From: an uncultured Gammaproteobacteria bacterium
GTDB taxonomy: Bacteria > Patescibacteriota > Microgenomatia > UBA8517 > UBA10165
Assembly: GCA_964366515.1 (NCBI GenBank)
Contig: CAYIUF010000001.1
Coordinates: forward strand, 51,388 to 115,387
DNA length: 64,000 nt
Direction: 5' to 3'
Shown: piece by piece, positions 42,158 through 61,171 of the stretch
How positions within the stretch are numbered: position 1 is the stretch's first letter
How the letters are laid out: each line of letters starts with the position of its first letter
Translations under genes and position numbers: made by a program
The notes under the pieces: model-generated
The model's database searches: none
Seen by the model: only the letters and a program-made list of their open reading frames with translations
Told to the model about the DNA's origin: nothing

Positions 42158-42697
42158 ATGTCTGAAGCAGGCGTTCATCAAGAAGCTCCAACCATTCCAA
42201 CGACAGACGATCCAAAGGAATTTTTCGACCGTTTTCGAGAAAGCAAGTTTTACAAAGACGCCTCAGATGGGTTTTATACAGGCAAGACACTAGCATCAGA
42301 TGTCACCGAAGAAGAAAAAGACCTAGCGTTCTTAGAAAGTGATATCGCAAAAATCGCGCTTATCGACTTCACTCAACAAGAATTAGGATTTCACTACAAC
42401 TATACTAACTACACTCCCGAATCGAGAAAAGCGATTGGAGAATATGTTGCAACAGTTGAAGACCAAGCGGAAATGATTCGCGAAGGAGCAACTCAGCATG
42501 AGATTGCAACTGTAGACGGGATGCGGTTTTTAAACCATGTCGCCGCAGCAAAACAGCTAGTCAAAGACGGAACTGCACCAACAGAGAAAATGGGCAGAGC
42601 CTTGGCGAGACTCATCCTGGTTGATAAAAAACTGGATACATTAAACTCAGCAAGAGAACCAGACGTAAAACGACTCGAAAGAAAACTTGGTGTGTAG
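42158..42697 (+). CDS. hypothetical protein
   Basis: 180-aa ORF. ATG 6 nt after the extended -10 TGGTATATT (42143-42151). No motif recognised. Confidence 0.5.
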   Translation: MSEAGVHQEAPTIPTTDDPKEFFDRFRESKFYKDASDGFYTGKTLASDVTEEEKDLAFLESDIAKIALIDFTQQELGFHYNYTNYTPESRKAIGEYVATVEDQAEMIREGATQHEIATVDGMRFLNHVAAAKQLVKDGTAPTEKMGRALARLILVDKKLDTLNSAREPDVKRLERKLGV

Positions 42698-43372
42698 TTA
42701 ATCCCTCTCCAATAAATCAGGTCGGGTCTTTTTAGTTCGTTCTAATGAAGCGGTTTTTTTCCAAGCCTCTATTTTTTTGTGATTTCCAGACAACAATACT
42801 TCTGGAACTTTCCAACCTCGATACTCTTCAGGCCTTGTGTACTGAGGGTATTCCAGAAGACCATCCTCAAATGACTCATGTATCGTTGCATCCTCTTTTG
42901 TTAAAACACCTGGCAGAAGCCGTACCACCGTGTCAACAACTGCCATTGCAGGAATTTCTCCTCCGGTTAATACATAATCTCCGATTGAAATCTCCTCATC
43001 AATCAAATGCTCCCTTACCCTGTGGTCAACAGTTTCATAATGCGCCGCAATAAGAATCAAATGGTCACACTTCGAAAGTGACCGTGCACTCTTCTGTGTA
43101 AAGGGTTTCCCCCCGGGGTCCAGCAAAATCGTGTGGGAGGTTGGGGATCTTAGGGCTGTTAAGGCTTTGTCGAGAGCCTCCACCATTAAGACCATTCCGG
43201 TTCCACCCCCGTATGGTTTATCATCCACGATCTGGTGCCGACCTTCGGCCCAACCTCTTAGTTGATGAATATGGATTTCTACTAATAACTTGTCCTGAGC
43301 TCGCCGAAGGATGCTCTCAGAAAATGGCCCTTCAAACATCTCCGGAAAAAGAGTTAGTATATCGATTCTCAT
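42698..43372 (-). CDS. trmD: tRNA (guanine37-N1)-methyltransferase
   Basis: SPOUT/TrmD motifs (DILTLFPEM, PYGGGTGMV, GGEIPAM). Confidence 0.95.
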   Translation of the reverse strand: MRIDILTLFPEMFEGPFSESILRRAQDKLLVEIHIHQLRGWAEGRHQIVDDKPYGGGTGMVLMVEALDKALTALRSPTSHTILLDPGGKPFTQKSARSLSKCDHLILIAAHYETVDHRVREHLIDEEISIGDYVLTGGEIPAMAVVDTVVRLLPGVLTKEDATIHESFEDGLLEYPQYTRPEEYRGWKVPEVLLSGNHKKIEAWKKTASLERTKKTRPDLLERD

Positions 43373-43395
43373 ATTTGCATATTGTACACTACCTT

Positions 43396-44142
43396 GTGGC
43401 TAAATTTGTCGTAGTTGTCCCTACCTACAACGAGCGGGAAAATATAAAAAGTTTAATTGACAAAATATGTCTCGTGCTTAAAAACACAAAAGGATGGAAA
43501 ATACTCATAGTTGACGACAACTCCCCAGACGGCACAAGCATGGTTGTACGAAACCACAAATTGTACAAAAAGGAAGTGCACATTCTAATAAAAGAAAAAA
43601 AGGAAGGATTGGGAAATGCCTATCTTGCAGGGATGGGACGAGCGTTTGAAAAAATGGATGCAGATTTTGTAATAACAATGGACGCAGACCATTCCCACAA
43701 ACCGGAATATCTGCCAGTGTTTCTAACGAAAATGTCGGAAGGAAAAGACTTCGTTGTGGGCTCCCGATACATTGGCGAGGGTGCAATCCCCAAAGAGTGG
43801 CCGCTTTATAGAAAAGTATTATCAATTGGTGGAAACTTAATAGTCCCCCTCTTCGTGGGGTCCCGAAAGCTAACTGACTGGACATCCGGTTTCCGTGCCA
43901 TAAGAAAAAACGTCTACCACAAAGTGAGGCCATTAATCTTAAAAGACCATGCGCAAAACAAAGGATATACATTCAACATTTCTTTTGCGTATCACACAGT
44001 GGATTCTAAATTTATGACAGGGGAAGTGCCGATCAAATTCCCAGACAGAAAGCACGGGCAGTCCAAGCTCGGGTTGGAATATCTAATTCATACTCCAATC
44101 TTTTTGATTTCCACTCGACTTGGGAAACTCTTCTCGGTATAG
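43396..44142 (+). CDS. GT2 polyprenyl-phosphate sugar synthase (Dpm1/PpgS-like)
   Basis: GTG start gives VAKFVVVVPTYNERENI. DDNSPDGT, DADHSH (DxD) motifs. The tool ORF 43141 is N-extended into trmD and was rejected. Confidence 0.8.
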   Translation: MAKFVVVVPTYNERENIKSLIDKICLVLKNTKGWKILIVDDNSPDGTSMVVRNHKLYKKEVHILIKEKKEGLGNAYLAGMGRAFEKMDADFVITMDADHSHKPEYLPVFLTKMSEGKDFVVGSRYIGEGAIPKEWPLYRKVLSIGGNLIVPLFVGSRKLTDWTSGFRAIRKNVYHKVRPLILKDHAQNKGYTFNISFAYHTVDSKFMTGEVPIKFPDRKHGQSKLGLEYLIHTPIFLISTRLGKLFSV

Positions 44143-44183
44143 TGAAAACACAATGAAAATAGTAATAATGGCGTAACCGACAT

Positions 44184-45413
44184 ATGAACGTAGTGATTAT
44201 AATCCCCACATACAACGAAGCCGAAAACATCGGCCGAATGCTCGACATCTTAGTAACAGAAGAGCTGCCCAAGATTAAAGACAATAAAGTCGAAATCCTT
44301 GTAGTCGACTCAAAATCCCCAGACGGAACTGCAAATATCGTCCGCGAGAAAATGAAAAAGTACAAACAGGTGAACATTCTCGAAACTGACAAAGGGGGAC
44401 TAGGAGCAGACTATGTAAAAGGAATGCGATATGCAATGCAAACCCTAAAAGCAGATGCTGTCATGGAGTTTGATGCTGACTTCCAACATGATCCTCGGGA
44501 TATAAAGAGGTTGATTGCCGCAATGGACGGCGGAGCAGATCATGTAATCGGGTCGCGTTACATAAAGGGCGGGGCAATACCTAAAGAATGGGGAATCCAC
44601 AGAAAAGCAATGAGTTTTTTTGGAAGTCAATTTGCACGCCTTGTTTTATTTTTGTTCGGCGTCCATGACATGACATCCGGGTTTAAACTTACAAAGTCTG
44701 AATTTCTGGGAAAAGTTGATCTTGAACATCTTTACTCGAAATACTATGCCTATAAAATCCAGATTACATATGAATTGGCAAAACTTGGAGCAGGTATTGT
44801 AGAGGTACCGATAATTTTCTACGAAAGAAAAGAGGGGACGTCAAAAATCTCTCGAAAAGATCTGATAGATTCTTTTTTGGTTGTAGTAAAGCTTCGCATT
44901 AGAGACTCAAAAAGATTTTTGAAATTTGGTGTTGTGGGGCTTTTGGGTTTTACAATAAACGCAATAGCCTTGGAGGTTTTTGCAAGAATGGCATTTACTG
45001 CAAGCCTTGCAAGCTGGTATGGGATAGTAACACCGGTTCCCTCTTTCCATGTACTATCCCAACCATCTGCCTGGGCTGCTGCAGCCGCAGCAGAAGTTGC
45101 CATAATCTCAAACTTTTTCCTCAATAATTATTGGACGTTCGCGGGGAAAAGCATCACTTCACCGGTAAGGTTTGTATGGAAATTTGCCCAATTTAATTTA
45201 ACTTCAATTGGGGCCGTTGTTATACAGGCAGTCGTAATCGGATTTGCAGTATTTTTATTCGGGGACAAAACTGTCGTTCGCCAGCTGGCACTAGTTTTAG
45301 CAGTCGGAGCCTTTATTGTCCCCTACAACTATACAATGTATAACGTATTCATTTGGAAGACCTGGAAAGTTCCCGGGCTAGGTTGGATTCAAAACAGAAA
45401 AGGCACTTCCTAA
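44184..45413 (+). CDS. GT2 polyprenyl-phosphate sugar synthase fused to C-terminal GtrA-like membrane domain
   Basis: IIIPTYNEAENI, VDSKSPDGT, DADFQHD motifs. C-terminal 4-TM GtrA-like segment (KFGVVGLLGFTIN...NNYWTF). Confidence 0.8.
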   Translation: MNVVIIIPTYNEAENIGRMLDILVTEELPKIKDNKVEILVVDSKSPDGTANIVREKMKKYKQVNILETDKGGLGADYVKGMRYAMQTLKADAVMEFDADFQHDPRDIKRLIAAMDGGADHVIGSRYIKGGAIPKEWGIHRKAMSFFGSQFARLVLFLFGVHDMTSGFKLTKSEFLGKVDLEHLYSKYYAYKIQITYELAKLGAGIVEVPIIFYERKEGTSKISRKDLIDSFLVVVKLRIRDSKRFLKFGVVGLLGFTINAIALEVFARMAFTASLASWYGIVTPVPSFHVLSQPSAWAAAAAAEVAIISNFFLNNYWTFAGKSITSPVRFVWKFAQFNLTSIGAVVIQAVVIGFAVFLFGDKTVVRQLALVLAVGAFIVPYNYTMYNVFIWKTWKVPGLGWIQNRKGTS

Positions 45414-46570
45414 AGCAACGGAGTCCAATCAGGAATTGGCGTTGTATTGTTTTGAATAAATACAATTGCAAAAAGGTAGATAGGAATAATCAAAAGAAGC
45501 ATTATCCATCTAAAGTCTCTTGCCGCGATAACTTTACTGAATGCTATAAATGCAAACGGAACCAGAGGCAAACTGTACCTTGCAAGATCTCTGTGAGAGA
45601 CAAACAAGAGAGACAAGAAAAATAGACCAGCAAAAGACGCAAGAAGCGCAAATTTTTGACGAATTAAATAAAGAACAGTTAAAGCTCCAAATAAGTAAAT
45701 CCAAACAACTTCCTCAAGCCAAAAAGTCCCAACCCACGTTTGTCCGGGGTTAAAAATCTGGAATGGAGGAAACATAAGGTGAATGTTGTCCCCCGAATTA
45801 AAGTAAGCAAAAAAGCTTCCGTATTGCTTTCCATACCAATACCAAAGTCCAACCAAGCTCAAGGGAATCAGAGAAATTGGGTATATTTGCCAAGGAAGTC
45901 TTTTGATCCATTTCGAAAAACTTACATGAGCAAGCTGTCCAAAAGTCGGAACAGCAATAGCAATTATGTATGAAAAAAACAATAGAATTCCGGGCGGCTT
46001 AGTAAGTTGGGCCATGGCCCCAAAAAGTGCCGCCAGCCAATATGACTTTTTGTTAAAGAAATAAATTGAAGTCAAAATTGTAAGTATGAATAGCGGCTCC
46101 GGCGACCCTACGGAGCGTGTAATCAAATACCTTGCAGGAAGAACCAGAAAGAGTATTGATAGCCATAGCGCATCTTTCTCGAGTCCGATCTGCCTTAGCA
46201 ACAAATAAAACACAAACGAAGCTAAGATACTAGAGATGCATGTGACCATCATCATTGCATAGGGGTAAGTTAAAAACGGCAAAACTGTGGCAACTCCGCG
46301 TATCAGCAGGGGGAACAAGGGATAATGCGCTGTGTAGTATATCGGAGGCAAAGGGAAGGAAAAATTTTGGGCAATTTTCTCTGGATTATAAAGGGTCTTG
46401 GCGGCAACTATGTAATACGGGCCGTCAAAATTTGAAACAACCGTCGCCATCCCATCCCTTTTTAATGGAATTCCCCATATTTCAGGCAATCTTAATGCAA
46501 AAGGAAGCCAAAGAATAATAGTTGTCGCAAGCGACGCAAGGGCAATAAAAAGAAAACTTCTGACCTTCAT
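45410..46570 (-). CDS. polytopic GT-C-fold membrane protein (putative glycosyltransferase)
   Basis: About 11 TM helices. ATG 9 nt after a TATACT box. The tool start (TTG at 46606) is possible. Confidence 0.45.
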   Translation of the reverse strand: MKVRSFLFIALASLATTIILWLPFALRLPEIWGIPLKRDGMATVVSNFDGPYYIVAAKTLYNPEKIAQNFSFPLPPIYYTAHYPLFPLLIRGVATVLPFLTYPYAMMMVTCISSILASFVFYLLLRQIGLEKDALWLSILFLVLPARYLITRSVGSPEPLFILTILTSIYFFNKKSYWLAALFGAMAQLTKPPGILLFFSYIIAIAVPTFGQLAHVSFSKWIKRLPWQIYPISLIPLSLVGLWYWYGKQYGSFFAYFNSGDNIHLMFPPFQIFNPGQTWVGTFWLEEVVWIYLFGALTVLYLIRQKFALLASFAGLFFLSLLFVSHRDLARYSLPLVPFAFIAFSKVIAARDFRWIMLLLIIPIYLFAIVFIQNNTTPIPDWTPLL

Positions 46571-46624
46571 CAAATCAATAGTATATGTCGCAGGCGACGC
46601 GCGCAATATGATATCCTTGGGACG

Positions 46625-47353
46625 ATGCGTACCTTGACCGTGGTGGTTCCGGTTTACAACGAAGAAAAAGATATCCCAAGAAACATGCCCGTTTTGTATA
46701 GGTTTCTTGCAAATAACTTCAAAAACTACACTTGGCGACTGATCATTGCAGACAACGGACCCTCAAAAGATAGAACCCCGGAAGTTTCAAAGATACTTGC
46801 AAGAAAATATAAAAACCTCGTTTATGTGAGAATTCCTCGCCCGGCGCGCGGGAACGCGTTGAAAGAAATTTGGCTCAAAGAAAACGCGGATTTACTTGTT
46901 TATATGGATGTAGATTTATCCTCAGACCTAAACTTCCTCCCCCAACTTGTACGAGCTCTTGAAGAAGGAGCAGATATCACAATTGGCTCAAGACTCAAAA
47001 AAGGCGCGAAGGTTTACGGGAGAACTTTCCTTCGAGAAGTAATGTCGAGAGGATACAACATAATGATTAAGATTTTCTTCTGGACGAAATTTTCAGACGC
47101 CCAATGCGGCTTCAAGGGGATTCGACGCGAGGCGGCTCTGAAATTACTGCCGCACGTAAAAGATAGAGCTTGGTTTTTTGACTCTGAACTTTTGATAATT
47201 GCGGAAAAATCAGGATATAAAGTCCGGGAAATACCAATTGTTTGGCGCGATGACCCGGCCTCAACTGTGAAGGTGGCAAAGACCGCCTGGGGAGATATTA
47301 AAGGATTATACAGACTTTTCACCACACGTCCTTGGAAAAAAGTTGCCAAATGA
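46625..47353 (+). CDS. GT2 polyprenyl-phosphate sugar synthase
   Basis: VVVPVYNEEKDI, ADNGPSKDRT, MDVDLSSD (DxD) motifs. Confidence 0.85.
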   Translation: MRTLTVVVPVYNEEKDIPRNMPVLYRFLANNFKNYTWRLIIADNGPSKDRTPEVSKILARKYKNLVYVRIPRPARGNALKEIWLKENADLLVYMDVDLSSDLNFLPQLVRALEEGADITIGSRLKKGAKVYGRTFLREVMSRGYNIMIKIFFWTKFSDAQCGFKGIRREAALKLLPHVKDRAWFFDSELLIIAEKSGYKVREIPIVWRDDPASTVKVAKTAWGDIKGLYRLFTTRPWKKVAK

Positions 47354-48834
47354 AGAAAGACCACATTCTCCTTATCCTAATACTTCTTTTCGCAGCATTT
47401 TTTCGCCTTTGGCGGATTGATGAATATCTTCCTTTTTTGGGGGACGAGGGTCGCGATGTTCGAGTTGTGTACCGCTTTATTACCCAGTTTGATCTGATGT
47501 TCATTGGCCCCAGAACCTCAATTGGGGATATGTATCTTGGGCCGCTTTACTACTACTTTATATTCCCCTGGCTTGCGCTATTTCATTTTTCTCCAACAGG
47601 CCCCGCAGTTGCCGTAGCCTTAACCGGAATCGCAACGGTCGCATTTATTTATCATGTTGCCCGGGAATGGTTTGGGAAAACAGCAGCAATTGTTAGCGCA
47701 TTTTTATATGCAATATCGCCTAAAGTAATTGAACTTTCAAAGCATTCATGGAACCCTAACATAATGCCATTCTTTGCGCTCCTCTGCGTGTACGGTATGT
47801 GGAGAGTGTGGGCAAAAAAACAAATGTGGTGGCTTCCAATCGTCGGAGTGTCATTCGCGTTTGTCCTGCAGTCACACTACCTTGGGCTGCTACTCCTCCC
47901 AATACTTGGGTTGTTGTGGGTGCTAGGGTGGCTGGAAGCAAGACGCACACACAGCACTAAACGTTTCTTCGTTCTTTCGTTCCTCAGTCTCTCCATTTTC
48001 GTGCTGCTTATGTCTCCCTTGTTTTTATTCGACTATAAACATGGTTGGCATAACATGCAGTCAATGAAGCTGTTTTTTACACACAGACAAGAAACGGTTT
48101 CCGCGCGCCCCTGGAATGCAATCCCCACTGTGTGGGTATTGTGGAATGCGAAAGTCGTGCAGGAGATTATAGGGGTCGCACAAAAAAGTGTAGGTGCCGC
48201 AGTCGCTTTGATTCTGGCAGTATTAACCGGAATCTTGCTGTGGACTGAAAGAAAGCGGCTAACAACCTCCCGGGCTTCGTTTCTTCTATTGGTTGTATGG
48301 ATCACAGTCGGCTTAATCGGTATCGGTTCCATCAAACAAAACATCTTCGCCCATTATTTTGGCTTTATGTTTCCTGCGCCTTTTCTATTGGTGGGTGCAC
48401 TTTCTGAAAAGTGGTGGGACAATAAAAAGTGGGCAGTCTTGTGTGTTTTGGGCACAGTAGCGGTGTTTAGTCTAATAAACAACCCTCTAAAAAATCCGCC
48501 CCAGCGCCAAATGCAGAGAGTCCAAGAGATTGATAAAAAAATTATTGAAGAATCAGGGGGCCGCGCATTTAATTTTGGGTTAGTTGCAGAAAGAAACTAT
48601 GACGAAGGATATTTATACTTCTTTGAATTGTGGAAGGCCCCAGTACGCCAAGCCGATCCACAGCACCTGGCTGAAACAGTAACAGACCAACTATTTGTTG
48701 TCTGCGAAAATTTACCCTGCAATCCAACAACCAGCTCAAAAGCAGAAATTGCACATTTTGGACCAACAAAAATTGAAAAGGAATGGGACACAGGCGGAGT
48801 TAAACTTTACAAACTGTCACACCACCAATTGTGA
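47350..48834 (+). CDS. ArnT/PMT-family GT-C glycosyltransferase (paralogue 1)
   Basis: N-terminal LPFLGDEGRDV...GPLYYY motif region and more than 10 TM helices. ATGA overlap with the preceding GT2. Confidence 0.7.
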   Translation: MKKDHILLILILLFAAFFRLWRIDEYLPFLGDEGRDVRVVYRFITQFDLMFIGPRTSIGDMYLGPLYYYFIFPWLALFHFSPTGPAVAVALTGIATVAFIYHVAREWFGKTAAIVSAFLYAISPKVIELSKHSWNPNIMPFFALLCVYGMWRVWAKKQMWWLPIVGVSFAFVLQSHYLGLLLLPILGLLWVLGWLEARRTHSTKRFFVLSFLSLSIFVLLMSPLFLFDYKHGWHNMQSMKLFFTHRQETVSARPWNAIPTVWVLWNAKVVQEIIGVAQKSVGAAVALILAVLTGILLWTERKRLTTSRASFLLLVVWITVGLIGIGSIKQNIFAHYFGFMFPAPFLLVGALSEKWWDNKKWAVLCVLGTVAVFSLINNPLKNPPQRQMQRVQEIDKKIIEESGGRAFNFGLVAERNYDEGYLYFFELWKAPVRQADPQHLAETVTDQLFVVCENLPCNPTTSSKAEIAHFGPTKIEKEWDTGGVKLYKLSHHQL

Positions 48835-49814
48835 AAATATATAAAGAAGCACAAGCAATTTTAGATAAAATTAATGTTGCCAAAAATATACTCCTGTTTT
48901 TGCATGTTAACCCAGACGGGGACAGCATAGGATCAAACCTGGCTCTCGCTCGAGTTTTAGAGGGCATGGGGAAAAATGCCGCAATTTATTCTGCTGACGA
49001 ACCCCAGGAGAATCTAGATTTTTTACCCGGTCTTGAAAAAGTAATTCGCGAAGATCCCAATAAAGCAGATTTCGAAAAATATGATCTTTTAATTTTTTTA
49101 GATAGTGCCGAGGGCCTTCGCGTAACAAGACACGATCATTTGCCAGTCCCGGAAAAACTACCAACAATTGTAATAGATCACCATAGTACAAATGAAGGTT
49201 ACGGACAGGTAAACCTTATCGATTCAACAGCATCGTCAACTTCAGAAATTCTCTATAGCTTGTTTGAATCATGGAAAACAAAAATAGACCCAGGGACTGC
49301 CAACTGTTTGCTTGCGGCAATTTTCTCTGACACCGGAACCCTTAGGTGGGCAACAAACGAAAACACACTGGAAGCCGCAAGTCAGTTAATAAAAAACGGC
49401 GCAAACCTTGAAAAAATAAACTTTAACCTTTACTCAAGAACTCCACTTAATATGGTAAAGTACCAAGCCGAAGTAGTCAGAAGAATGAAAAAGGAAGCAG
49501 CCGGCAAAAAAAAGTTTCTCTGGGCGGCAACGTCATTTGAGGATATCGAAAAGCTGGGGGGAACAAAAATTGCAGTTGGAGGGTCAGACATTGGAAAAAC
49601 TGTGGAAGGAGTTGATTTTGCCCTTGTGATAAGAGAGGAAGAAAAAGGGGTAATAACGGGGTCCTTGCGCGCAAGAACGAATGTTGACGTTTCAAAAATT
49701 GCATCTTCTTTAGGCGGCGGGGGTCATAAAGCGGCAGCAGGCTTCTCCATAAAGTTCGAAGGATCATTTAACGACAAAGTCGGTGAAATCATTGAAAAGA
49801 TCAAATCATCATGA
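48831..49814 (+). CDS. nrnA: DHH-DHHA1 phosphoesterase (NrnA-like nanoRNase/pAp phosphatase)
   Basis: HVNPDGDSIGS, DHH (VIDHHS), and GGGGHKAAAGF motifs. Confidence 0.8.
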   Translation: MKIYKEAQAILDKINVAKNILLFLHVNPDGDSIGSNLALARVLEGMGKNAAIYSADEPQENLDFLPGLEKVIREDPNKADFEKYDLLIFLDSAEGLRVTRHDHLPVPEKLPTIVIDHHSTNEGYGQVNLIDSTASSTSEILYSLFESWKTKIDPGTANCLLAAIFSDTGTLRWATNENTLEAASQLIKNGANLEKINFNLYSRTPLNMVKYQAEVVRRMKKEAAGKKKFLWAATSFEDIEKLGGTKIAVGGSDIGKTVEGVDFALVIREEEKGVITGSLRARTNVDVSKIASSLGGGGHKAAAGFSIKFEGSFNDKVGEIIEKIKSS

Positions 49815-51301
49815 TGAAAAACAAGCTCATTTCCTTCTTCCTGAGTATTATTCTGGTACTTGCCGCATTCGTCAGGGTTTATAGAACAAACGAAATCTTG
49901 GGCCTTTATTTCGACCAAGGTCGAGACGCGCAAGTAATTTGGGATTTTGTCCATAGTGGACGCTTATTTCTAATTGGCCCAACTACCGGAATCGAAGGAA
50001 TTTTTCGCGGCCCCTGGTACTACTGGCTGATTACTCCATTTTATTGGTTAGGAGGAGGCAACCCCGTTTGGCCTGCTGTGTTTCTAGCATTAACCACAGT
50101 GGCGGCACTTTTTATCATGTTCCATCTTTCATATGTGATTGCAGGTAAAACTGCAGGATTTCTTGCTTTGATAATCGGATCATTTTCATTCTTCTTTATG
50201 TTGGCCGCTCGCTGGCTTTCAAACCCCACGCCAATGTTTTTGATAAGTATGCTTCTTCTATACTCGCTGTTTTTAATACTAAACGGCAAAAAATGGGCAT
50301 GGATTGGTGTTTCATTCCTGGTCGGTTTGTCTATGCAGTTTGGGAGTGCAACGGAGGTATTTCTTTTTCCGGCTATTGCCGTATTTGCAATTTGGCAAAG
50401 GAAGATGTTGCCAAGCAAAAAAATTCTACTTTTATCAGTTGCTGCGCTTGGTGTAACGGTACTTCCTCAAATTGTGTTCGATATAAAACATGAAGGAATA
50501 TTACAAATTGGAATAAAAAGATTTCTTTTTGCGGAAGATAGTTTCAAGGCCTCGCTCTGGGAAGTAGCAAAACAAAGGGCAGATTTTTACTTGGGGGTTT
50601 TTGGATCAAAATTGTTTCCTTCATCGGGAGAATACCGAAACTGGTTTATATACGGTGGAATTGTGGCACTGTTGGGAACGTTCAAATATTGGAAGGTAAA
50701 CAAATATTTTCTGACCACACTCCTAATATTTTCTGCGCCACTTATTGGAATGCTATTTTTCCAGGGCAATAGCGGAAATGTTTACGATTACTACTTTACC
50801 GGATACTATTTTGTGTTTGTGATTTTGTTTTCGAGCGTTTTCTCTTACATTGCAAAGAGTCTGTTGGGCAAAGTGATTTTAGGAATATTTATCTACCTAT
50901 TTTTGATGGACAACATTGTAATTACAAGAAATTATATAAATGATCGCGGGGAAGGTGAGAACACAATAAATTTTGGCAACCAAATGCGAGCCCTCAATTG
51001 GGTATACGCGGATCTGGGTGAGTGCGACAAATTTAATCAAGACGCGTACGTACCGCCAGTTATCCCACACGCATACAACTATTTGTTTACATGGTATGGA
51101 GCCGAAATTGATTGTTCTCCTGTGGAGGAGCAAGTAAGTCTCTTATATACTATTTATGAAGTTGATCCGCCGCACCCCGAAAGGCTTAAGGCATGGCTTG
51201 ATAGGCAAAAGGGAATAGGCATTATTGAGAAGTCAGATCGCTTTGGAGGAATTACCGTAGAAAGAAGGATGAGAATCTCAGATGGTGAAAAACACGAGTG
51301 A
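49811..51301 (+). CDS. ArnT/PMT-family GT-C glycosyltransferase (paralogue 2)
   Basis: LYFDQGRDAQV...GPWYYWL N-terminal region similar to the 47350 protein. Polytopic. Confidence 0.7.
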   Translation: MMKNKLISFFLSIILVLAAFVRVYRTNEILGLYFDQGRDAQVIWDFVHSGRLFLIGPTTGIEGIFRGPWYYWLITPFYWLGGGNPVWPAVFLALTTVAALFIMFHLSYVIAGKTAGFLALIIGSFSFFFMLAARWLSNPTPMFLISMLLLYSLFLILNGKKWAWIGVSFLVGLSMQFGSATEVFLFPAIAVFAIWQRKMLPSKKILLLSVAALGVTVLPQIVFDIKHEGILQIGIKRFLFAEDSFKASLWEVAKQRADFYLGVFGSKLFPSSGEYRNWFIYGGIVALLGTFKYWKVNKYFLTTLLIFSAPLIGMLFFQGNSGNVYDYYFTGYYFVFVILFSSVFSYIAKSLLGKVILGIFIYLFLMDNIVITRNYINDRGEGENTINFGNQMRALNWVYADLGECDKFNQDAYVPPVIPHAYNYLFTWYGAEIDCSPVEEQVSLLYTIYEVDPPHPERLKAWLDRQKGIGIIEKSDRFGGITVERRMRISDGEKHE

Positions 51302-52064
51302 ACTACCATATTTGTCTGTAGTTGTCCCTGCTTACAACGAAGAAGTAAATATAAAAAGGGGCGCAACGGATCGTCTGCTTTCGTATATGAAAAAGCAAGA
51401 CTATACCTGGGAGGTTTTGTTTGTTGACGATGGCTCTCAAGACAATACTGCAAGCTTACTTTCCGAACTTACAAAAAAAGAAACAAGAGTGCATTTGATT
51501 AAAAACCCTCATCAGGGCAAAGCGGCAACTGTAACAACCGGAGTAATGCAATCAAAAGGAGAAATAATTCTTTTTACAGACACAGATCAAGCAACTCCAA
51601 TGAAAGAAGTTGAAAAATTTTTGCCATACTTTCAAGAAGGCTACGACGTCGTGATCGGCTCCCGGAGCGGGAGGGCTGGAATGCCGGTATTTAGAAAAGT
51701 TATGGCATATGGTTTTGTTATTTTAAGAACAATCGTGCTCCGCCTCCCATTCAAGGATACCCAAACTGGATTCAAAGCATTTACTAGGGATTCAGCGCAC
51801 AGAATTTTTGCAACATTAAAAATCTTTGGAACAAGCGGGGTAATGGGCCAGACAAGAGTCATTAAAGGTGCCGCTGTAAAAGCAGGTTTTGACATAGAAA
51901 TACTGTTCGTGGCCCGAAAATTAGGCTACAAAATCAAGGAGGTCCCGGTTGAATGGCACCATCCAGGGACAACACGCGTCAATCCCTTAAAAGACTCAAT
52001 TGAGGCTCTAAGCGACATGATTAGGATTAGATGGTATGCCTTGCGGGGAGAATACAAAGGTTAA
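51282..52064 (+). CDS. GT2 polyprenyl-phosphate sugar synthase
   Basis: VVVPAYNEEVNI, VDDGSQDNT, TDTDQATP motifs. Confidence 0.85.
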   Translation: MVKNTSELPYLSVVVPAYNEEVNIKRGATDRLLSYMKKQDYTWEVLFVDDGSQDNTASLLSELTKKETRVHLIKNPHQGKAATVTTGVMQSKGEIILFTDTDQATPMKEVEKFLPYFQEGYDVVIGSRSGRAGMPVFRKVMAYGFVILRTIVLRLPFKDTQTGFKAFTRDSAHRIFATLKIFGTSGVMGQTRVIKGAAVKAGFDIEILFVARKLGYKIKEVPVEWHHPGTTRVNPLKDSIEALSDMIRIRWYALRGEYKG

Positions 52065-52140
52065 TTATCAATTTCCAATTTTTAATTTTCAATGAATGTT
52101 CAAAACATTTAAATTTTCAAATTCATTTCAAATTTCGAAT
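52065..52140 (+). repeat. A/T-rich degenerate tandem repeat tract (TTTCAAAT/AATTTTCAA units) spanning the start of the next ORF
   Basis: caatttccaatttttaattttcaatgaatgttcaaaacatttaaattttcaaattcatttcaaatttcgaatttcaaatttaaaattcc, seen directly. Confidence 0.4.
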
Positions 52141-53646
52141 TTCAAATTTAAAATTCCCCTGCTGTTTTTGGGAATATTCTTACTAGCTTTGTTCCTCCGT
52201 ACGTACAATATCTTCTCAATTCCCATCTTTGCAGATGAGGCAATTTATATAAGATGGGCGCAGGTTATGCGCGCTGTCGCCTCCCTAAGATTTCTTCCAT
52301 TATCAGATGGCAAACAGCCCTTGTTTATGTGGATGATGATTCCGCTTCTCAAGGTGGTCACAGACCCTCTTGTGGCAGGCCGGATACTATCTGTGCTTTC
52401 GGGTCTTGGCGCTTTGGTGGGTGTATTTTTATTAACCAACAAACTGTTTGGCAAAAAACCTGCGTTGTTTGCGTCTTTTTTATATGCAATTTCCCCGTTT
52501 ACTGTTTTTTTCGACAGAATGGCACTAGTTGATAGCATGTTGGCAATGTTTGGGATCTGGTCACTCTACCTTGGTGTGCTAACTGCACAAACCTTAAGAC
52601 TGGACTACGCAATGTTAACCGGATTTGCCTTAGGCGGAGCATACCTAACAAAGTCCCCTGGAATATTCTTTCTTGCACTCCTTCCGACAACAATCTTGGC
52701 TGCCAAATGGAAAGACAACAAACATTCAAACTTAAATCAAGTTGGGAAACTCATCGGTTTGTGGAGTGTTTCATGGATTATCGGTCTCGGCTTGTATAAC
52801 ATCCTAAGGCTTGGCCCAGAATTTCATATGTTGGCAATAAGAAACAAAGATTATGTTTATAGCTTTGCAGATTTTTTCAAGCACCCCTTCGACCCGCTTA
52901 GGCCCCACATGGGGGATATACAATCATGGTTTTGGAATTTGCTGCCGGCTACAACTCTGGGCGCGGCGGTTTTCGGAATCGTAGCCAGTTTTAAAAAATC
53001 ATGGAAAATGGTACTACTTCTTCTTGCATGGTGCCTTGGCCCTCTGTTTGTCGAAGCCGCTTTAGCAAAAGTCTTTACAGCAAGATATGTCCTTTTTACT
53101 GCAACCCCCATGTTTATACTGGCTGGCGCAGGCGCCGCATTTGCGGCAAAGAAAATTAAAACTTTAACTGTTGTTGGACTACTTGGAGCAATGCCCCTCA
53201 CCATAAACTATCTACTTCTAACTGCTCCTGAAAAAGCCCCCCTCCACAAAAACGAAAGGGCAGGGTATCTGGAGGAGTGGACATCAGGAACAGGAATCAG
53301 AGAAATTGCAAAATATATAAAAGCTGAGAAGATAAAAAATCCTGAACAAAATATAGTTGTTGGGACAGAAGGTTATTTTGGAACCCTCCCGGACGGTTTA
53401 CAGATTTATTTATCAGATATTCCGGGAATTGTTGTAAGAGGGGTTGGGGTTACAATCTTTGATGTGGATTCTTCTCTTATTGACGCAAAAAAAGCAGGCA
53501 ACAGAGTATTTCTTGTAGTTAACTCAACGAGATTCAAGATTGAGAATCCAGAACTTAAGGGATTGGTTTTGGTAAATCAATATCTCAAAGCAAAAAGATC
53601 AAATGGCACTCAAGAAGCATTAACGCTTTGGGAGCTTGCCAAGTAA
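52096..53646 (+). CDS. ArnT/PMT-family GT-C glycosyltransferase (paralogue 3)
   Basis: IFADEAIYIRWAQ...ALFASFLYAISPF resembles the other two paralogues. The first 20 codons lie in the repeat tract, so the true start may be internal. Confidence 0.65.
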   Translation: MFKTFKFSNSFQISNFKFKIPLLFLGIFLLALFLRTYNIFSIPIFADEAIYIRWAQVMRAVASLRFLPLSDGKQPLFMWMMIPLLKVVTDPLVAGRILSVLSGLGALVGVFLLTNKLFGKKPALFASFLYAISPFTVFFDRMALVDSMLAMFGIWSLYLGVLTAQTLRLDYAMLTGFALGGAYLTKSPGIFFLALLPTTILAAKWKDNKHSNLNQVGKLIGLWSVSWIIGLGLYNILRLGPEFHMLAIRNKDYVYSFADFFKHPFDPLRPHMGDIQSWFWNLLPATTLGAAVFGIVASFKKSWKMVLLLLAWCLGPLFVEAALAKVFTARYVLFTATPMFILAGAGAAFAAKKIKTLTVVGLLGAMPLTINYLLLTAPEKAPLHKNERAGYLEEWTSGTGIREIAKYIKAEKIKNPEQNIVVGTEGYFGTLPDGLQIYLSDIPGIVVRGVGVTIFDVDSSLIDAKKAGNRVFLVVNSTRFKIENPELKGLVLVNQYLKAKRSNGTQEALTLWELAK

Positions 53647-54259
53647 GATCACCTTGAATAAAGCCGCAAGAGAACACTTCAAAAAAACCGACCCAATTTT
53701 ATATAAAGCACTAGAAAAAGTTGGTAAAGTGGAAATGGACAAGCCAAGAAGTCCGAAAGTATATTTTGAACATCTTGTTCGCTCAATTGTTTTCCAACAG
53801 TTGTCCGGGAAAGCTGCAAATACAATATATAGTAGATTCATGGCGTTGCTTCCAAAAGGAAAGGTGACCCCAGAAACTATCTTAAAACTAAGCGATGAAG
53901 AGATTCGTGGAGCAGGAATTTCAGGCCAGAAGATGGGCTATATCCGAGATTTATCGCAAAAGGTAAAAGATAAAGAAGTAGACCTTAACAATCTCCAAAA
54001 TTTAAGTGACGAGGAAGTAATAAGTGAGCTAACTAAAGTTAAAGGGATAGGCCGCTGGACAGCCGAAATGTTCCTCATGTTCACACTAACCCGCCCCGAC
54101 ATTTTCTCCCATGGCGACCTTGGCTTAAGGAATGCAATTAAAATGCTATACAAACTTGAAAACCCGACCCAAGAGCAAGTAGAACTCATTTGTGCAAAGT
54201 GGTCGCCACACAGAACATACGCTTGCAGAATCTTGTGGGAAAGCCTGGATAATCGCTGA
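53636..54259 (+). CDS. HhH-GPD DNA glycosylase (AlkA / 3-methyladenine glycosylase II-like)
   Basis: LTKVKGIGRWTAEMFLMF...D.GLRNAI helix-hairpin-helix GPD motif with catalytic Asp. Confidence 0.8.
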   Translation: MPSKITLNKAAREHFKKTDPILYKALEKVGKVEMDKPRSPKVYFEHLVRSIVFQQLSGKAANTIYSRFMALLPKGKVTPETILKLSDEEIRGAGISGQKMGYIRDLSQKVKDKEVDLNNLQNLSDEEVISELTKVKGIGRWTAEMFLMFTLTRPDIFSHGDLGLRNAIKMLYKLENPTQEQVELICAKWSPHRTYACRILWESLDNR

Positions 54260-54291
54260 AGCTCATATATCGAGTACGCTATAACAGATGA

Positions 54292-55149
54292 TCACTTCAA
54301 TATATAAATATCCTGGTTAGTCTCAGAAGTCCCCACAAGCTCGCCCGAGCCTCGGAGTATTGCCTCGTAGGGAAGGCAGTTGTTGCACCCGTTAGTGGAG
54401 CAGTTCAAAAGATTCAATTGCCTTGCAAGCTTAATTCGCTTTGCAACCTCCATCACCCTGTCAATTGCGTCTTTTTCTTCAGGTAAGACAGCCTCCTGTG
54501 GGGTGTCGCTTTTATCTATATACCAATAACTTGCTTTCGAAACTGGATACTTTTGAGTATTTTTAGTCAAAAGATAGTATATCGGAAGCTGTAAAGAGCC
54601 CTCAGACTCCTCATTTTTACCGGTCTTGAAGTCAACAATATGAACTGATCCATCGTCCATATATTCCAACCAATCAATCTTCCCACACAAAATTATGTTG
54701 TCTTCTTTGGAAAATAAATATCGCGGCAGTTCAAAATTAGATTTTGACCCGTCCTCTTCTCTTGGGGTGATTTTTATGGCCTTGTTTAGAAGTATTCCCG
54801 GATTTTTCTCTACTCGCGCAAGCATTGCCAAACCCCGCTCTTTGTATTCTGCTTCTTGCTCAGGAGTTCTAAACCCCCCCATTTTCCCTGAAACTTTTGC
54901 CCATGCTTCCTCAAACTTTTTAGATAAAGGCTCCTTAAATCTTTCGGCTGCAGGAAACGCAGACAAGGCCTCCAAAGTCTCATGAACCGCCTGCCCCAAA
55001 GCCAAAGGGGGAGACATAATGGTCATCTTCCTGTTTGTCGCCTTGCTCTTATACATATTTCGAAGATAATAAGACCGGGCACACTTCAAAAAATCTCCAA
55101 TTGAAGAATGAGATACCCAAACCGGCTGGCTTTCTCTGGGCTTGATCAC
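54292..55149 (-). CDS. PD-(D/E)XK nuclease with Cas4-like 4-Cys iron-sulfur module (RecB-family, stand-alone)
   Basis: N-terminal Cys (DFLKCARSYY), a VHIVDFKTGK core (DxK) consistent with a PD-(D/E)XK nuclease fold, C-terminal CSTNGCNNC triad. No cas genes or CRISPR nearby. Confidence 0.65.
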   Translation of the reverse strand: MIKPRESQPVWVSHSSIGDFLKCARSYYLRNMYKSKATNRKMTIMSPPLALGQAVHETLEALSAFPAAERFKEPLSKKFEEAWAKVSGKMGGFRTPEQEAEYKERGLAMLARVEKNPGILLNKAIKITPREEDGSKSNFELPRYLFSKEDNIILCGKIDWLEYMDDGSVHIVDFKTGKNEESEGSLQLPIYYLLTKNTQKYPVSKASYWYIDKSDTPQEAVLPEEKDAIDRVMEVAKRIKLARQLNLLNCSTNGCNNCLPYEAILRGSGELVGTSETNQDIYILK

Positions 55150-56140: not shown

Positions 56141-56548
56141 TCATAAGTTCAAAATTAAGATAGAAAGTTGAAGTAGTGTGGCCAAAATGACCCAAGCCAA
56201 ATAAGGAACCTGTGCCCATGCAACAAAAGGTGAGTATTTATATATTGCCCGAATGCCCCAGACTATAGTCCCAAGGGCGACCAAAATGTCAATTGAAGCC
56301 AGAGGGACATTTTTTAAGCCAAAAAGAAGAGGAGTAAAAAGAAAATTGGCAATTAGATTTATAACAAACGGAGCCAAAACTTTCTTTGGAAACTTGCGAA
56401 TATAAACCTTGTAAAAGACATACCCAAAAGATAGAAAAATAACAGGATAAAGAACTCCCCAAATAGCTCCAATTGTTTCACCCGTTGGAGTCCAAGCAGG
56501 CTTTTCTAAAGCAGAGTACCATTCTTCCCAATTCCAAGAATCAAACAT
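56141..56548 (-). CDS. TspO/MBR tryptophan-rich sensory protein family
   Basis: W-rich 5-TM protein. LEKPAWTP, VLYPVIFLS, and NLIANFLFTPLLFG motifs. Confidence 0.75.
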   Translation of the reverse strand: MFDSWNWEEWYSALEKPAWTPTGETIGAIWGVLYPVIFLSFGYVFYKVYIRKFPKKVLAPFVINLIANFLFTPLLFGLKNVPLASIDILVALGTIVWGIRAIYKYSPFVAWAQVPYLAWVILATLLQLSILILNL

Positions 56549-58206: not shown

Positions 58207-58461
58207 ATGGGCACAAAGCTTCAAACTGAAAAGAATATAGATTTAACACACAAACTGATTGACTACTTGGTGAACGGCAAAGCTGTTCCTGAGCTACCAC
58301 AGGATGTGTCATTTGTCCCCTTTTCCAAAACTGACAAAAAACTTAATAAGGTAAATAACGAGCTGCTTGTAGCTATTTCCAAACAGGAGAAACCAGTCGC
58401 AATCGCTGAAGAACCGAAGTCTAGCGCAGAACCTTGGAAAATAACCCCGGTAAATTTTTAA
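58207..58461 (+). CDS. hypothetical protein
   Basis: 84-aa ORF convergent with, and overlapping by 4 nt, the restriction enzyme gene. Confidence 0.35.
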   Translation: MGTKLQTEKNIDLTHKLIDYLVNGKAVPELPQDVSFVPFSKTDKKLNKVNNELLVAISKQEKPVAIAEEPKSSAEPWKITPVNF

Positions 58462-61127
58462 CCCCCATTCTCAATGATTTCGATCTCCGATGGAGTAAGG
58501 CCGTAGAGTTTATAAACTTCTTGGTCAATTTTTTTATCAGCCTTTTCAATTTCCGAATTTACCAAATTCCACCTCTCAGAATTTCTTTCTAATGATTCCA
58601 GTTGCTTATTTAAGGACAGTATTTTTTCTGAAAGCTGCATAATCGCTTTGCTATCACCTGAAGAGGGTTCAATAATAGGAAATTTATCTAGATGCAGGTT
58701 TTTAAGTTGTGGCGTACTATTTCGATTAGTTACAGCAAAATTTTTGTAATAAATGTTAATGAGTTTTGAATTTAGAATAGCCAACAATAATAGTAGCTTA
58801 TCTCTCTCTACCCCATAAATAAAATACAAAGATTGTTCAGGATAAATACCAGAATCATCAAAAGTCGCTATAATATCGGATCCTGTCTTTCTAAGCAAAA
58901 TTTTATTTTTTACAGATAGTTTACTTTCATCTCGAGTTCTTCCGGTCAAATTTTTATCTGTGAAATTAAACCAATAAAATCCCTTAACCAAGTATCGTCC
59001 AATATTTTCACCCTTTATTATTCTAATTTCTTTTTCACTTTGTTTATTCAAGTGAATTTCAGTTGTCTTTGCACCGCAGCCTGAAGTAGATTCGGCAACC
59101 TGCGATAACAATTTTATCGATGGTTTTGCAAAGATTCTTTCAAATAGATTTTGTATCTTTTGATCGATATAGAAGAAGCTTTTATCATCTTGCTGATCAA
59201 ATACCTTCTGTACGATTTTTGAGTATCCTTGATTTTTATAGTCCCCAATCTCAATTATTTCTCGCAGCCCTGGTTTACTTTTTTGCAATACAAAAATCAT
59301 CGTGTCGGCAATAACGCCAGGAAAGTCAACATTAAAAAGTAGGTGTTTCAGTGTGAAGTTTTGTAAAATATGCTTTCTGAGTTCGACAAATTGCTGGTTA
59401 GAAGCGAGTCTGTCTGGAATAATAAAGCTAAAATACCCATCTTTTTTTAGTAACTCTAGACTCTTGTATATAAACATTTCGTACAAATTTGGCGCATATG
59501 TGTTGGACTTATATTTTTGCGTTAGAAACTCAATTTCTTTTTTAATGAAGTCATCACTTCTAAACTTTCCGCTCATTGATACCCATGGCGGATTCCCAAT
59601 CACAACATCAAAGCCTCCTTGTTTAAAAACCTCTGGGAACTCTTCCTCCCAAATGAAAGGCCTCTTTTCTCGATAATTTATCCCATAAACCGACCTTAGC
59701 TCAGTATCAGTTCCTGAGATCAAAGAGTTTCCGTTCTTAATATTTTTATCTAGGTTTGGTAACTTAAGTTTGCTGTCTAGAGCAAACAAGAGTAGGTTAA
59801 GTCGAGCAATTTCAATAGCTTGTGTGTCAAGGTCGACTCCGTAAATATTCTCCATAAGAATGGTTAGTTTTGTGAAAGTTCCCATAGGGCTTCCGAAGTC
59901 TAAGTGTTTCTGGTAAATAAAATTTGCTGCTTTAATCAAGAATGAACCCGAACCACAGGCAGGATCCAACACTTTTATTTTCTTTAGATCATTTATACTT
60001 TCACATTTATCCAAAACTGGTCCCAAGGTGTTTTTAACGATATAATCCACGACATAGTCGGGCGTGTAATAGATGCCCTGATCTTTTCTTTTCTTTGCAT
60101 CTTTATTAAGTGTGAGCCCTTTTTTTGATTTAAACAGTCTATAACCTAAATAGTTTTCATAAACACCACCAAGAACATCTGAGGGAATAACTTTAAAATC
60201 ATATTCGTAATACCCTTGTTTTCCCTGAAGTATTCGGAAAACCCTCTCAGTTGTGTTGTTCCAGTCTTCCCAGTCCTCAAGGGGATGCTCTGAAAATAAG
60301 TTTGAATCGTATATTTCATCCAACTCTCTAAACTTTGCAATCATAGATTTATATAATGGTATTTCATTACGAGTTTTACTGTTCTCCCAGTCTCGTATAA
60401 GCGGTATTAACGTTGGTGGTTCAATGCCTCGATCTTCTGCCACACGAATAAAAATTAGCCTATCTAAAAGTTTCTGTACACCTTCATCTAGCAGTTCATC
60501 GTCCACGTCGGGATTCATTTGTCCCAGTTTTTCTATTAATAGTTCTCGACACAAGGTAAGGTCTTTATACAAGGAAGAAGTAACAGAAACACGTTGAAGC
60601 TTTTTACCTATTTTTTCGGCTTCTTTATCAATTAGATTTTTTACAAACGCTTCTTTAGACAACAGCCATAGTTGGTCAAAGCGTTCTAGGTAATCGGTAT
60701 ATGGAATTTCGAAGTATAACTTGTCTGATAAATGGCTATCTATTACTTGAGCATTGAATACCTTTAGGCTTTCAAAGTCAGTGAGCACAGCCCATGTTGC
60801 GCCCTTATTCCAGGAGTATTTGATTGCTTGATTTGCATATTCTTCCCTGTGAAGGTCGCTCTTTAGGGGTTTAGCCTCCAAGTAGAATTTAAGTCTATTG
60901 CTTACATAAAACCCGAAATCAACACGACCATTTGATTGATGCTCCTCGGCAGTAACCTCACTCCTATCCGCAGTGTCCCAGCCAAGTGCATCGAATAAGG
61001 GACGGATGAAGCCATTCTTTGTGTCTTCCTCGGTGTATTTGTTTATATCCCCCGACTTCTTAACCAATTCATACTTTTCTATTAACTGCCTCACTTTCTC
61101 TCGCGCAGAGTGCATTGAATCATTCAT
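58458..61127 (-). CDS. Type IIG/IIL restriction-modification fusion enzyme (N-terminal PD-ExK endonuclease + gamma-class N6-adenine methyltransferase + target recognition domain; Eco57I/MmeI-like)
   Basis: N-terminal VDFGFYVSNRLKFYLEAKPL (D...ExK), MTase motif I LDPACGSGSFL, motif IV VIGNPPW. 889 aa. Confidence 0.85.
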   Translation of the reverse strand: MNDSMHSAREKVRQLIEKYELVKKSGDINKYTEEDTKNGFIRPLFDALGWDTADRSEVTAEEHQSNGRVDFGFYVSNRLKFYLEAKPLKSDLHREEYANQAIKYSWNKGATWAVLTDFESLKVFNAQVIDSHLSDKLYFEIPYTDYLERFDQLWLLSKEAFVKNLIDKEAEKIGKKLQRVSVTSSLYKDLTLCRELLIEKLGQMNPDVDDELLDEGVQKLLDRLIFIRVAEDRGIEPPTLIPLIRDWENSKTRNEIPLYKSMIAKFRELDEIYDSNLFSEHPLEDWEDWNNTTERVFRILQGKQGYYEYDFKVIPSDVLGGVYENYLGYRLFKSKKGLTLNKDAKKRKDQGIYYTPDYVVDYIVKNTLGPVLDKCESINDLKKIKVLDPACGSGSFLIKAANFIYQKHLDFGSPMGTFTKLTILMENIYGVDLDTQAIEIARLNLLLFALDSKLKLPNLDKNIKNGNSLISGTDTELRSVYGINYREKRPFIWEEEFPEVFKQGGFDVVIGNPPWVSMSGKFRSDDFIKKEIEFLTQKYKSNTYAPNLYEMFIYKSLELLKKDGYFSFIIPDRLASNQQFVELRKHILQNFTLKHLLFNVDFPGVIADTMIFVLQKSKPGLREIIEIGDYKNQGYSKIVQKVFDQQDDKSFFYIDQKIQNLFERIFAKPSIKLLSQVAESTSGCGAKTTEIHLNKQSEKEIRIIKGENIGRYLVKGFYWFNFTDKNLTGRTRDESKLSVKNKILLRKTGSDIIATFDDSGIYPEQSLYFIYGVERDKLLLLLAILNSKLINIYYKNFAVTNRNSTPQLKNLHLDKFPIIEPSSGDSKAIMQLSEKILSLNKQLESLERNSERWNLVNSEIEKADKKIDQEVYKLYGLTPSEIEIIENGG

Positions 61128-61171
61128 AATGAGTTAGAGAATTTTAGCAGAAAACCAGCCTTAAATATATC

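Follow-up and report, generated by a model that had tools for sequence, protein, structure and literature searches.

In the multi-component transmembrane glycosylation systems of Shigella phages (GtrB-GtrA-GtrC) and Firmicutes (CsbB-GtcA-YfhO, GtlA-GtlB and CsdAB/CD/EF-CflA), as in GacI-GacJ-GacL, the gene for a glycosyltransferase (GT) of the GT-A fold and family GT2, related to polyprenyl-phosphate sugar synthases, lies beside the gene for a polytopic membrane glycosyltransferase of the GT-C type (PMC8035078, PMC11127046). GT-C enzymes require lipid-linked donors (PMC11127046), and both the service of several GT-A/GT-C pairs by one GtrA-type flippase and GT-A enzymes that have no membrane helix are known (PMC8035078). 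We describe here a block of four genes for GT2 enzymes and four for membrane glycosyltransferases of the GT-C type at positions 43396-53646 of a 64,000-nucleotide stretch of DNA (the window, meaning the whole stretch analysed) from an uncultured groundwater bacterium of the Microgenomates, within the candidate phyla radiation (CPR). The gene content comes from the listing of open reading frames (ORFs), their translation, and Pfam and NCBIfam scans. The block is in our judgment likely a set of multi-component transmembrane glycosylation systems following GtrB/GtrA/GT-C logic and gathered in one syntenic Microgenomates locus. The data at hand are its gene content, family and fold assignments, catalytic motifs, synteny, and a gene fusion in relatives; from these we infer what the enzymes do, which kinds of sugar they handle, how these are flipped and what accepts them.

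The block resembles the described systems in having several GT2/GT-C pairs in one genome, possibly a single shared GtrA-type element, and some GT2 enzymes without a helix. It differs from them in that four GT2 and four GT-C genes form one class-wide block instead of scattered or phage-borne pairs, in that its GtrA-type element is fused to a GT2 enzyme instead of being a separate small protein, and in that its GT-C proteins belong with PMT_2 and the "Gpi18-like" type and not with YfhO or GtrC. The kind of system is well known, and no new mechanism is involved beyond the known GtrB/GtrA/GT-C scheme. Abundant GT2 and GT-C genes are unsurprising in such genomes; what goes beyond routine annotation is the synteny throughout the class, the fusion of GT2 to GT-C, and a GT-C family that is restricted to the lineage and has no Pfam model.

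At the left edge of the block stands trmD (42698-43372, minus strand), the tRNA m1G37 methyltransferase gene, recognised from a Pfam tRNA_m1G_MT match on the identical gene in a replicate assembly (L001); it is a synteny anchor and lies outside the pathway. GT2a (43396-44142, plus strand; 248 aa; PF00535, E 4e-28) begins at a GTG, in agreement with the gene call on an identical contig. GT2b (44184-45413, plus) joins a PF00535 domain (E 6e-26) to a GtrA_DPMS_TM domain (PF04138, residues 247-391, E 9e-12, 45.6 bits). Convergent with it, their 3' ends overlapping by 4 nt, is MPx (45410-46570, minus), a membrane protein of 386 aa that has no Pfam match and carries the label "Gpi18-like" in JGI. 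GT2c (46625-47353, plus; 242 aa; PF00535, E 1e-20) shares 4 nt at its stop with the start of GTCa (47350-48834, plus; 494 aa; PMT_2 53.8 bits, PMT 23.9 bits). A DHH/DHHA1 gene for an NrnA-like phosphoesterase (48831-49814, plus; PF01368 and PF02272; NrnA NCBIfam E 4e-30, below its cut-off) is wedged between GTCa and GTCb with a 4-nt overlap on either side, and it is followed by GTCb (49811-51301, plus; 496 aa; PMT_2 35.6 bits), GT2d (51282-52064, plus; 260 aa; PF00535, E 8e-28), GTCc (52096-53646, plus; 516 aa; PMT_2 55.6 bits, PMT 33.6 bits) and the gene for an HhH-GPD glycosylase (53636-54259, plus). The Pfam cut-offs are 26.1 bits for PMT_2 (PF13231), 22.7 bits for PMT (PF02366) and 26.1 bits for GtrA_DPMS_TM. 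Throughout 46625-54259 neighbouring genes overlap or are at most 31 nt apart. A scan of 42500-54800 for promoters and terminators gave counts equal to those in shuffled controls.

An initial annotation, made from the sequence without database searches, had placed all eight glycosyltransferase genes at or near these coordinates; its gene list stands, except that it omitted the DHH gene and that some start sites shift slightly. Between the window and the replicate assembly L001, which represents the same population at low coverage, there are 2 base differences in 13.3 kb. One of these differences (window position 52453, L001 position 10352) changes AAA to TAA and truncates GTCc at codon 120; it could reflect an error in sequencing, the coverage being 4x, or a genuine null variant.

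Identical DNA is present in Hainich groundwater metagenomes collected on 0.1-µm filters, and the closest genomes are those of Candidatus Blackburnbacteria. The MPx family is small and lineage-restricted: 1.84 billion representatives include 156 clusters of it at E<=1e-30, and it is present in at least 474 species-level genomes. Synteny was studied in the best 80 MPx-family loci, from Blackburnbacteria, Woesebacteria and other Microgenomates, onto all of which the window proteins were mapped; per-gene counts refer to the 56 species-level loci that have sufficient flanking DNA. Many of the metagenome-assembled genome (MAG) records with the locus (e.g. L007, L009, L010, L013) bear the title "uncultured Gammaproteobacteria bacterium", and one is called "Nevskiaceae"; on Microgenomates MAG records these titles are evidently taxonomic mislabels.

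The order trmD, GT2-GtrA, GT-C (MPx), GT2, GT-C, DHH, GT-C, GT2, GT-C is kept in about 50 of the 56 species-level genomes, with conserved strands (trmD minus, GT2b plus, MPx minus, and GT2, GTCa, DHH, GTCb, GT2d and GTCc all plus), and recurs down to about 48% MPx identity. GT2b and GTCa are each found in 55 of these loci, GTCb and trmD in 51, GTCc in 46 and the DHH gene in 38; GT2b adjoins MPx in 55. GT2a, present in only 6, is a lineage-specific extra copy. Some related loci have two or three DHH copies, and the number of GT-C genes per locus runs from three to six. Dozens of independent genomes share this gene order, which chance does not explain. The block is an old gene cluster whose order has been kept across the Microgenomates.

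The age of the array is also evident from its members. Clustering of 203 PMT_2-type ORFs taken from these loci placed GTCa, GTCb and GTCc in separate orthogroups (of 67, 56 and 49 members), one window protein in each. Recent tandem duplication was considered and rejected, as the paralogues are only 22-37% identical and fall in separate orthogroups; with so little identity between them, the array must be old and its members long distinct. The initial annotation had taken the block for a local tandem array and had asked whether the three paralogues are recent duplicates. The synteny across 56 loci shows instead an ancient core locus of the Microgenomates, and the answer to its question is no: the three are distinct old orthogroups. 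A fourth PMT_2 orthogroup of 25 members occurs between GTCb and GT2d in many Woesebacteria-type loci (e.g. L014, L019, L033, L037); its members are 22-32% identical to window GTCa or GTCb, whichever matches best, and it is absent from the window's lineage.

The GT2 enzymes resemble synthases of polyprenyl-phosphate sugars. The dolichyl-phosphate mannose synthase (DPMS) of Pyrococcus furiosus (PfDPMS, PDB 5mlz) is the best PDB match of GT2a (E 7e-28), GT2b (E 2e-31) and GT2c (E 2e-17), the last aligning across residues 4-232, while GT2d matches GtrB (5ekp), ArnC and DPMS about equally well (E ~1e-13). The likeness is closest in GT2b, which aligns at about 34% identity to PfDPMS over both its catalytic and its four-helix membrane domain, and which has the DPMS type-III architecture, a GT2 catalytic domain followed by a C-terminal four-helix GtrA/DPMS domain (described in PMC5526996). 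Residues D89 and D91 (the DXD motif), G115-S116-R117 and R131 of PfDPMS are invariant in all four proteins of the window; S135 is kept in GT2a, GT2b and GT2c and is Ala in GT2d. In DPMS, R117, R131 and S135 bind the acceptor phosphate (PMC5526996). The donor-contact pair Q93/H94 is retained only by GT2b, whose DAD-x-QH and GSR motifs correspond to D89, D91, Q93, H94 and R117 of PfDPMS, so that GT2b keeps the full set of these residues with R131 and S135. As the sugar-contact positions differ in GT2a, GT2c and GT2d, these three probably make other lipid-linked sugars. Among themselves the window's GT2 paralogues are 23-37% identical, GT2a and GT2b sharing 37%.

GT2a, GT2c and GT2d also differ from PfDPMS in having no membrane domain, and a scan of all three for hydrophobic helices found none; the PfDPMS alignments of GT2a and GT2c do reach into the interface-helix region. 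PfDPMS deprived of its membrane domain remains membrane-bound and active (PMC5526996), which makes the three helix-less proteins credible synthases. The best NCBIfam matches of GT2a-d are AglJ, ArnC, dolichyl-phosphate hexose transferase, PgfS and PpgS, with PgfS on top for both GT2c and GT2d. The description of these genes as four Dpm1/PpgS-like GT2 enzymes, one of them fused to a GtrA-like membrane domain (GT2b), is thus borne out by PF00535 in all four, by PDB matches to DPMS, GtrB and ArnC, and by the PF04138 match. Processive synthases, which had been put forward as the alternative to check, find no support: the proteins resemble lipid-phosphate synthases in PDB matches, NCBIfam matches and conserved residues.

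Turning to the membrane proteins, GTCa, GTCb and GTCc all exceed the Pfam cut-off for PMT_2, and GTCa and GTCc exceed that for PMT as well; GTCb has no match to PMT. Profile comparison with hhalign relates GTCa and GTCb as full-length homologues (probability 100%, 463 columns; 31% identity) and GTCc to both (97.6% to GTCa, 94.8% to GTCb; 22% identity to GTCa), with MPx only remotely related. The predicted structure of MPx matches GT-C enzymes only, and MPx is on this model probably a GT-C fold glycosyltransferase of a family that lacks a Pfam model. The model resembles GPI mannosyltransferase I, PimE and ALG12 as well as protein-directed GT-C enzymes; compared with the GPI mannosyltransferase/PIG-V (Gpi18)/PimE group in particular, MPx has no Pfam match, and AglB, ALG12 and ArnT score as high or higher. 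All four membrane proteins thus fit what the initial annotation took them for, polytopic GT-C proteins, three through PMT_2 matches and MPx through its predicted model, and the possibility it had raised of families outside GT-C finds no support.

Each of the four has an acidic motif in its first extracytoplasmic loop that is invariant or at least 95% conserved within its orthogroup: N-x-D-G-P in MPx (D49), G-D-E-G-R-D in GTCa (D32-E33 and D36), D-Q-G-R-D in GTCb, and F-x-D-E-A-I-Y in GTCc (D47 and E48, both invariant). GTCa, GTCb and GTCc each end in a C-terminal domain of their own, of about 110-130 aa; that of GTCa is an extracytoplasmic alpha/beta domain with two invariant Cys, and that of GTCc is conserved. 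Family membership and the adjacent GT2 genes point to a lipid-phosphate-linked donor, which the GT-C proteins would use outside the membrane. Among the relatives of MPx, some of 674-749 aa carry an uncharacterised N-terminal domain of about 300 aa that lies outside the membrane and after one membrane helix; these were considered as GT2 fusions and ruled out, the extension having neither a Pfam match nor similarity to a window protein.

Fusions of a GT2 enzyme to a GT-C enzyme are found at the GTCa position. Six of the best 120 GTCa homologues (P0191, P0194, P0198, P0200, P0217, P0230) are proteins of about 731-747 aa in which a GT2 domain at the N-terminus is joined to a PMT_2 domain at the C-terminus, and in loci L015, L025 and L049 a single in-frame ORF of 734-743 aa covers the GT2 slot and GTCa together. 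Natural fusions at this place support a functional link between the GT2 enzyme and the GT-C enzyme there. The slot upstream of GTCa holds a GT2 gene in nearly all related loci, of one of two sequence types: the window's GT2c type fills it in 11 loci, and the fused GT2 is orthologous, at 45-63% identity, to the GT2 that holds the slot in loci of the Woesebacteria type. The papers checked do not mention GT2/GT-C fusions (the words "fusion" and "fused" do not occur in PMC11127046), and no search aimed at such fusions was made. Elsewhere in the block the pairing follows adjacency. GT2b and MPx, GT2c and GTCa, and GT2d and GTCc are neighbours in the window and in most of the 56 loci, GT2d lying immediately upstream of GTCc in most of them. 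GTCb has no GT2 gene directly upstream, being preceded by the DHH gene and followed by GT2d, which pairs by synteny with GTCc and not with GTCb; GTCb may share a donor with its paralogue GTCa. The initial proposal of three complete GT2/GT-C modules gains from adjacency and from the fusion, and is too tidy, since a flippase-type element is found on GT2b only and GTCb has no GT2 gene directly before it.

Several facts pull the other way from a set of glycosylation systems. Every NCBIfam match is far below the family cut-off, so that no protein here counts as orthologous to an enzyme already characterised. GTCa, GTCb and GTCc, whether searched as single sequences or as orthologue profiles, gave no GT-C match among solved structures, those of PMT and ArnT included (CAZy GT39 and GT83, a type to which actinobacterial Pmt, with its Ppm1, also belongs), and they have no Pfam MIR domain match; sequence consequently does not settle their placement with ArnT or with PMT. 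Unrelated genes (DHH, HhH-GPD) sit inside the same tight string, and since they do so in compact genomes, gene packing by itself is weak evidence. The fused GT2 is only 26-30% identical to the window's GT2c type. GT2b and MPx are convergent and hence not co-transcribed, which leaves conserved adjacency as the one basis for pairing them. The 80 loci are the closest relatives of one anchor protein, MPx, and the conservation fractions describe that sample. Lastly, a standalone or small GtrA-like ORF was sought within the window and none was found, and no flippase role has been demonstrated for the PfDPMS membrane domain (PMC5526996). Within the window, a flippase-type element was found only in GT2b, as its GtrA/DPMS domain; in Lactococcus a single GtrA-type flippase serves three GT-A/GT-C pairs (PMC8035078), so one such element could be enough.

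Could the adjacency simply be inherited order in a compact genome, with GT2 and GT-C genes serving unrelated pathways? We regard this as improbable, and likewise its extension, in which some of the GT2 enzymes would lengthen lipid-linked or soluble acceptors instead of making polyprenyl-phosphate sugars. The GT2/GT-C fusions at the same position in relatives, the start-stop codon overlap of GT2c and GTCa, the conserved acceptor-phosphate residues in GT2a-d and the need of GT-C enzymes for lipid-linked donors (PMC11127046) all speak against it, and have to be set beside the sharing of the conserved order by housekeeping genes (trmD and the NrnA-like DHH gene), the lack of an operon signal above chance in the promoter and terminator scans, and equivalog scores that all fall under their cut-offs.

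A set of glycosylation systems would work as follows. At the membrane's cytoplasmic side the four GT2 enzymes would each move one sugar from a nucleotide sugar to polyprenyl phosphate, the host being bacterial and the carrier thus differing from the dolichyl phosphate of PfDPMS. GT2b, the best-defined of the four, probably makes polyprenyl-phosphate mannose in the way of P. furiosus DPMS, with GT2a, GT2c and GT2d providing other lipid-linked sugars. These would be flipped outward, for which the GtrA/DPMS domain of GT2b is the sole candidate, and MPx, GTCa, GTCb and GTCc, as distinct old families, would transfer them outside the membrane by way of the first-loop acidic motif. Gene order makes GT2b and MPx likely partners, and likewise GT2c and GTCa (GTCb perhaps joining them) and GT2d and GTCc. 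Since the GT-C orthologues correspond one-to-one throughout the class, what the locus builds or decorates is probably an envelope component that is itself conserved, and not a strain-variable antigen.

As to what that acceptor is, one tentative proposal is that the systems serve mainly in protein O-glycosylation, in the manner of actinobacterial Ppm1/Pmt or streptococcal PgfS/PgfM, with surface proteins rich in Ser, Thr and Pro as the targets. Scores of GTCa and GTCc above the cut-offs of both PMT and PMT_2 would fit this, as would the PgfS matches of GT2c and GT2d, and the window does encode a TMTC-like protein as well as secreted or anchored proteins rich in Pro and Thr (PT-rich). Both such proteins named in the initial annotation as candidate acceptors exist: the product of 37510-38379 combines a signal peptide and a lamin-tail domain with a long linker that is PT-rich and a membrane anchor at the C-terminus, and that of 8886-9338 (minus strand) is small, with a stretch rich in Ser, Thr and Pro, and ends in LPETG, a hydrophobic tail and KAKK, which is a sortase signal. 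These candidates have no link to the locus, however; solved protein O-mannosyltransferases go unmatched at the sequence level, and four to six conserved GT-C families per locus exceed the known needs of bacterial protein O-mannosylation.

The one-to-one orthologues of four GT-C families, in fixed order class-wide, would suit a second proposal, to which we attach the same measure of doubt: that the GT-C enzymes work one after another outside the membrane, and that the product they assemble or decorate is a glycopolymer or lipoglycan conserved in the envelope. PimE, Mpt and Aft of mycobacteria are comparable, as is the glycosylation of teichoic acids or rhamnan in Firmicutes, and precedents are reviewed in PMC8035078. 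The differing sugar-contact residues of the GT2 enzymes suggest several donors, and MPx is as similar to lipid- and glycan-directed GT-C enzymes (GPI mannosyltransferase I, PimE, ALG12) as to protein-directed ones. A C-terminal PA14 domain occurs in two distant MPx-family members (P0481, P0506). PA14 is a sugar-binding domain, and its presence counts as a hint toward this proposal, one that comes only from distant relatives. TagO-like, LtaS-like and ABC-exporter backbone genes were not seen next to the block, which tells against a glycopolymer. Lipid A, the acceptor of ArnT, finds no support in the window, because the window ORFs searched gave no Pfam or NCBIfam match to lipid A pathway genes. 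The evidence in the window does not separate protein from glycopolymer or lipoglycan as the acceptor, and we give the two about equal weight.

A bolder version of the glycopolymer idea, which we put forward as speculation and think rather unlikely as a whole, is that the block is the core machinery for a lineage-defining envelope glycoconjugate of the Microgenomates, with polyprenyl-phosphate monosaccharides as its building blocks and all of its assembly outside the membrane. Four to six GT-C enzymes would work one after the other, the slot GT2 would be swapped between lineages to change the sugar, and the GT2/GT-C fusion would represent direct hand-over of the donor. If true, this would be a glycoconjugate assembly line of the ER-lumen or mycobacterial style in an ultra-small bacterium.

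To our knowledge the cell envelope of the candidate phyla radiation is essentially uncharacterised. Attachment and feeding of these tiny cells, which probably depend on hosts, take place through this surface, and the locus, its order kept across Blackburnbacteria, Woesebacteria and related groups, gives a concrete handle on that envelope: enzymes to express and assay, a fusion that predicts a synthase-transferase partnership, and a marker block for comparative work. We found no earlier account of the block in the literature searched on CPR, Patescibacteria or Microgenomates, which does not prove that none exists.

Outside the block, a TMTC-like protein (28177-29883, plus strand) is a possible further transferase. 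Its polytopic N-terminal half, of about nine hydrophobic helices, is followed by C-terminal TPR repeats, and these give its only Pfam matches; DUF1736 and PMT_2 were looked for in Pfam and gave none. It has the motifs FVWDDEE, YRP, VHPAHT and TKE, equivalent to DD, SHKSYRP, HPIHT and KET of TMTC1-4 (motifs of the DD, YRP, HPxHT and KE type are described in PMC7801869), and it shares with TMTC1-4 the succession of a GT-C-like membrane half and TPR repeats; it differs in being bacterial, in having no DUF1736 Pfam match and in its few TPR repeats. A profile of its N-terminal part aligns with the GTCc family (hhalign probability 84%, E 8e-6), and among 120 listed homologues three have PF13231 and three are labelled protein O-mannosyltransferase in JGI. 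The earlier suggestion of a TMTC-like GT-C protein with TPR repeats is accordingly supported by the motifs, the repeats and the GTCc profile match and, with no DUF1736 or PMT_2 match, is not proven. Directly upstream lies a gene for a type IB DNA topoisomerase (27159-28196, plus), with a eukaryote/poxvirus-like catalytic core and a bacterial TopIB N-terminal domain; type IB DNA topoisomerases are uncommon in bacteria.

A polytopic membrane protein at 62647-63987 (minus strand; frame open to base 64000), its N-terminus cut by the window edge, has no Pfam or NCBIfam match. As a single sequence it aligns weakly to GTCa residues 90-197 (hhalign probability 32%), and it may be another PMT_2-like GT-C protein, unproven.

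Other genes of the window bear on the host. Near the LPETG protein are genes for an L,D-transpeptidase (YkuD; 10037-10723, plus) and a D-Ala-D-Ala carboxypeptidase (185-1102), and the three together suggest a wall of the Gram-positive type. An FdtA/WxcM-like protein (7260-7742, plus), of a family of sugar isomerases for dTDP-3-amino-3,6-dideoxy-hexoses, hints at unusual nucleotide sugars in the organism. The lysyl-tRNA synthetase encoded at 17220-18800 (plus; Pfam tRNA-synt_1f) is of class I; most bacteria use class II. At 58458-61978 (minus) an Alw26I/BREX PglX-like adenine methyltransferase of 889 aa stands beside an N6/N4 DNA methylase. The lowest-GC part of the window (GC 0.35 at 58-60 kb) holds these methylase genes, and the region may have been acquired as an island for restriction-modification or defence. 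At 56141-56548 (minus) is a small membrane protein of five helices that to the eye seems TspO/MBR-like.

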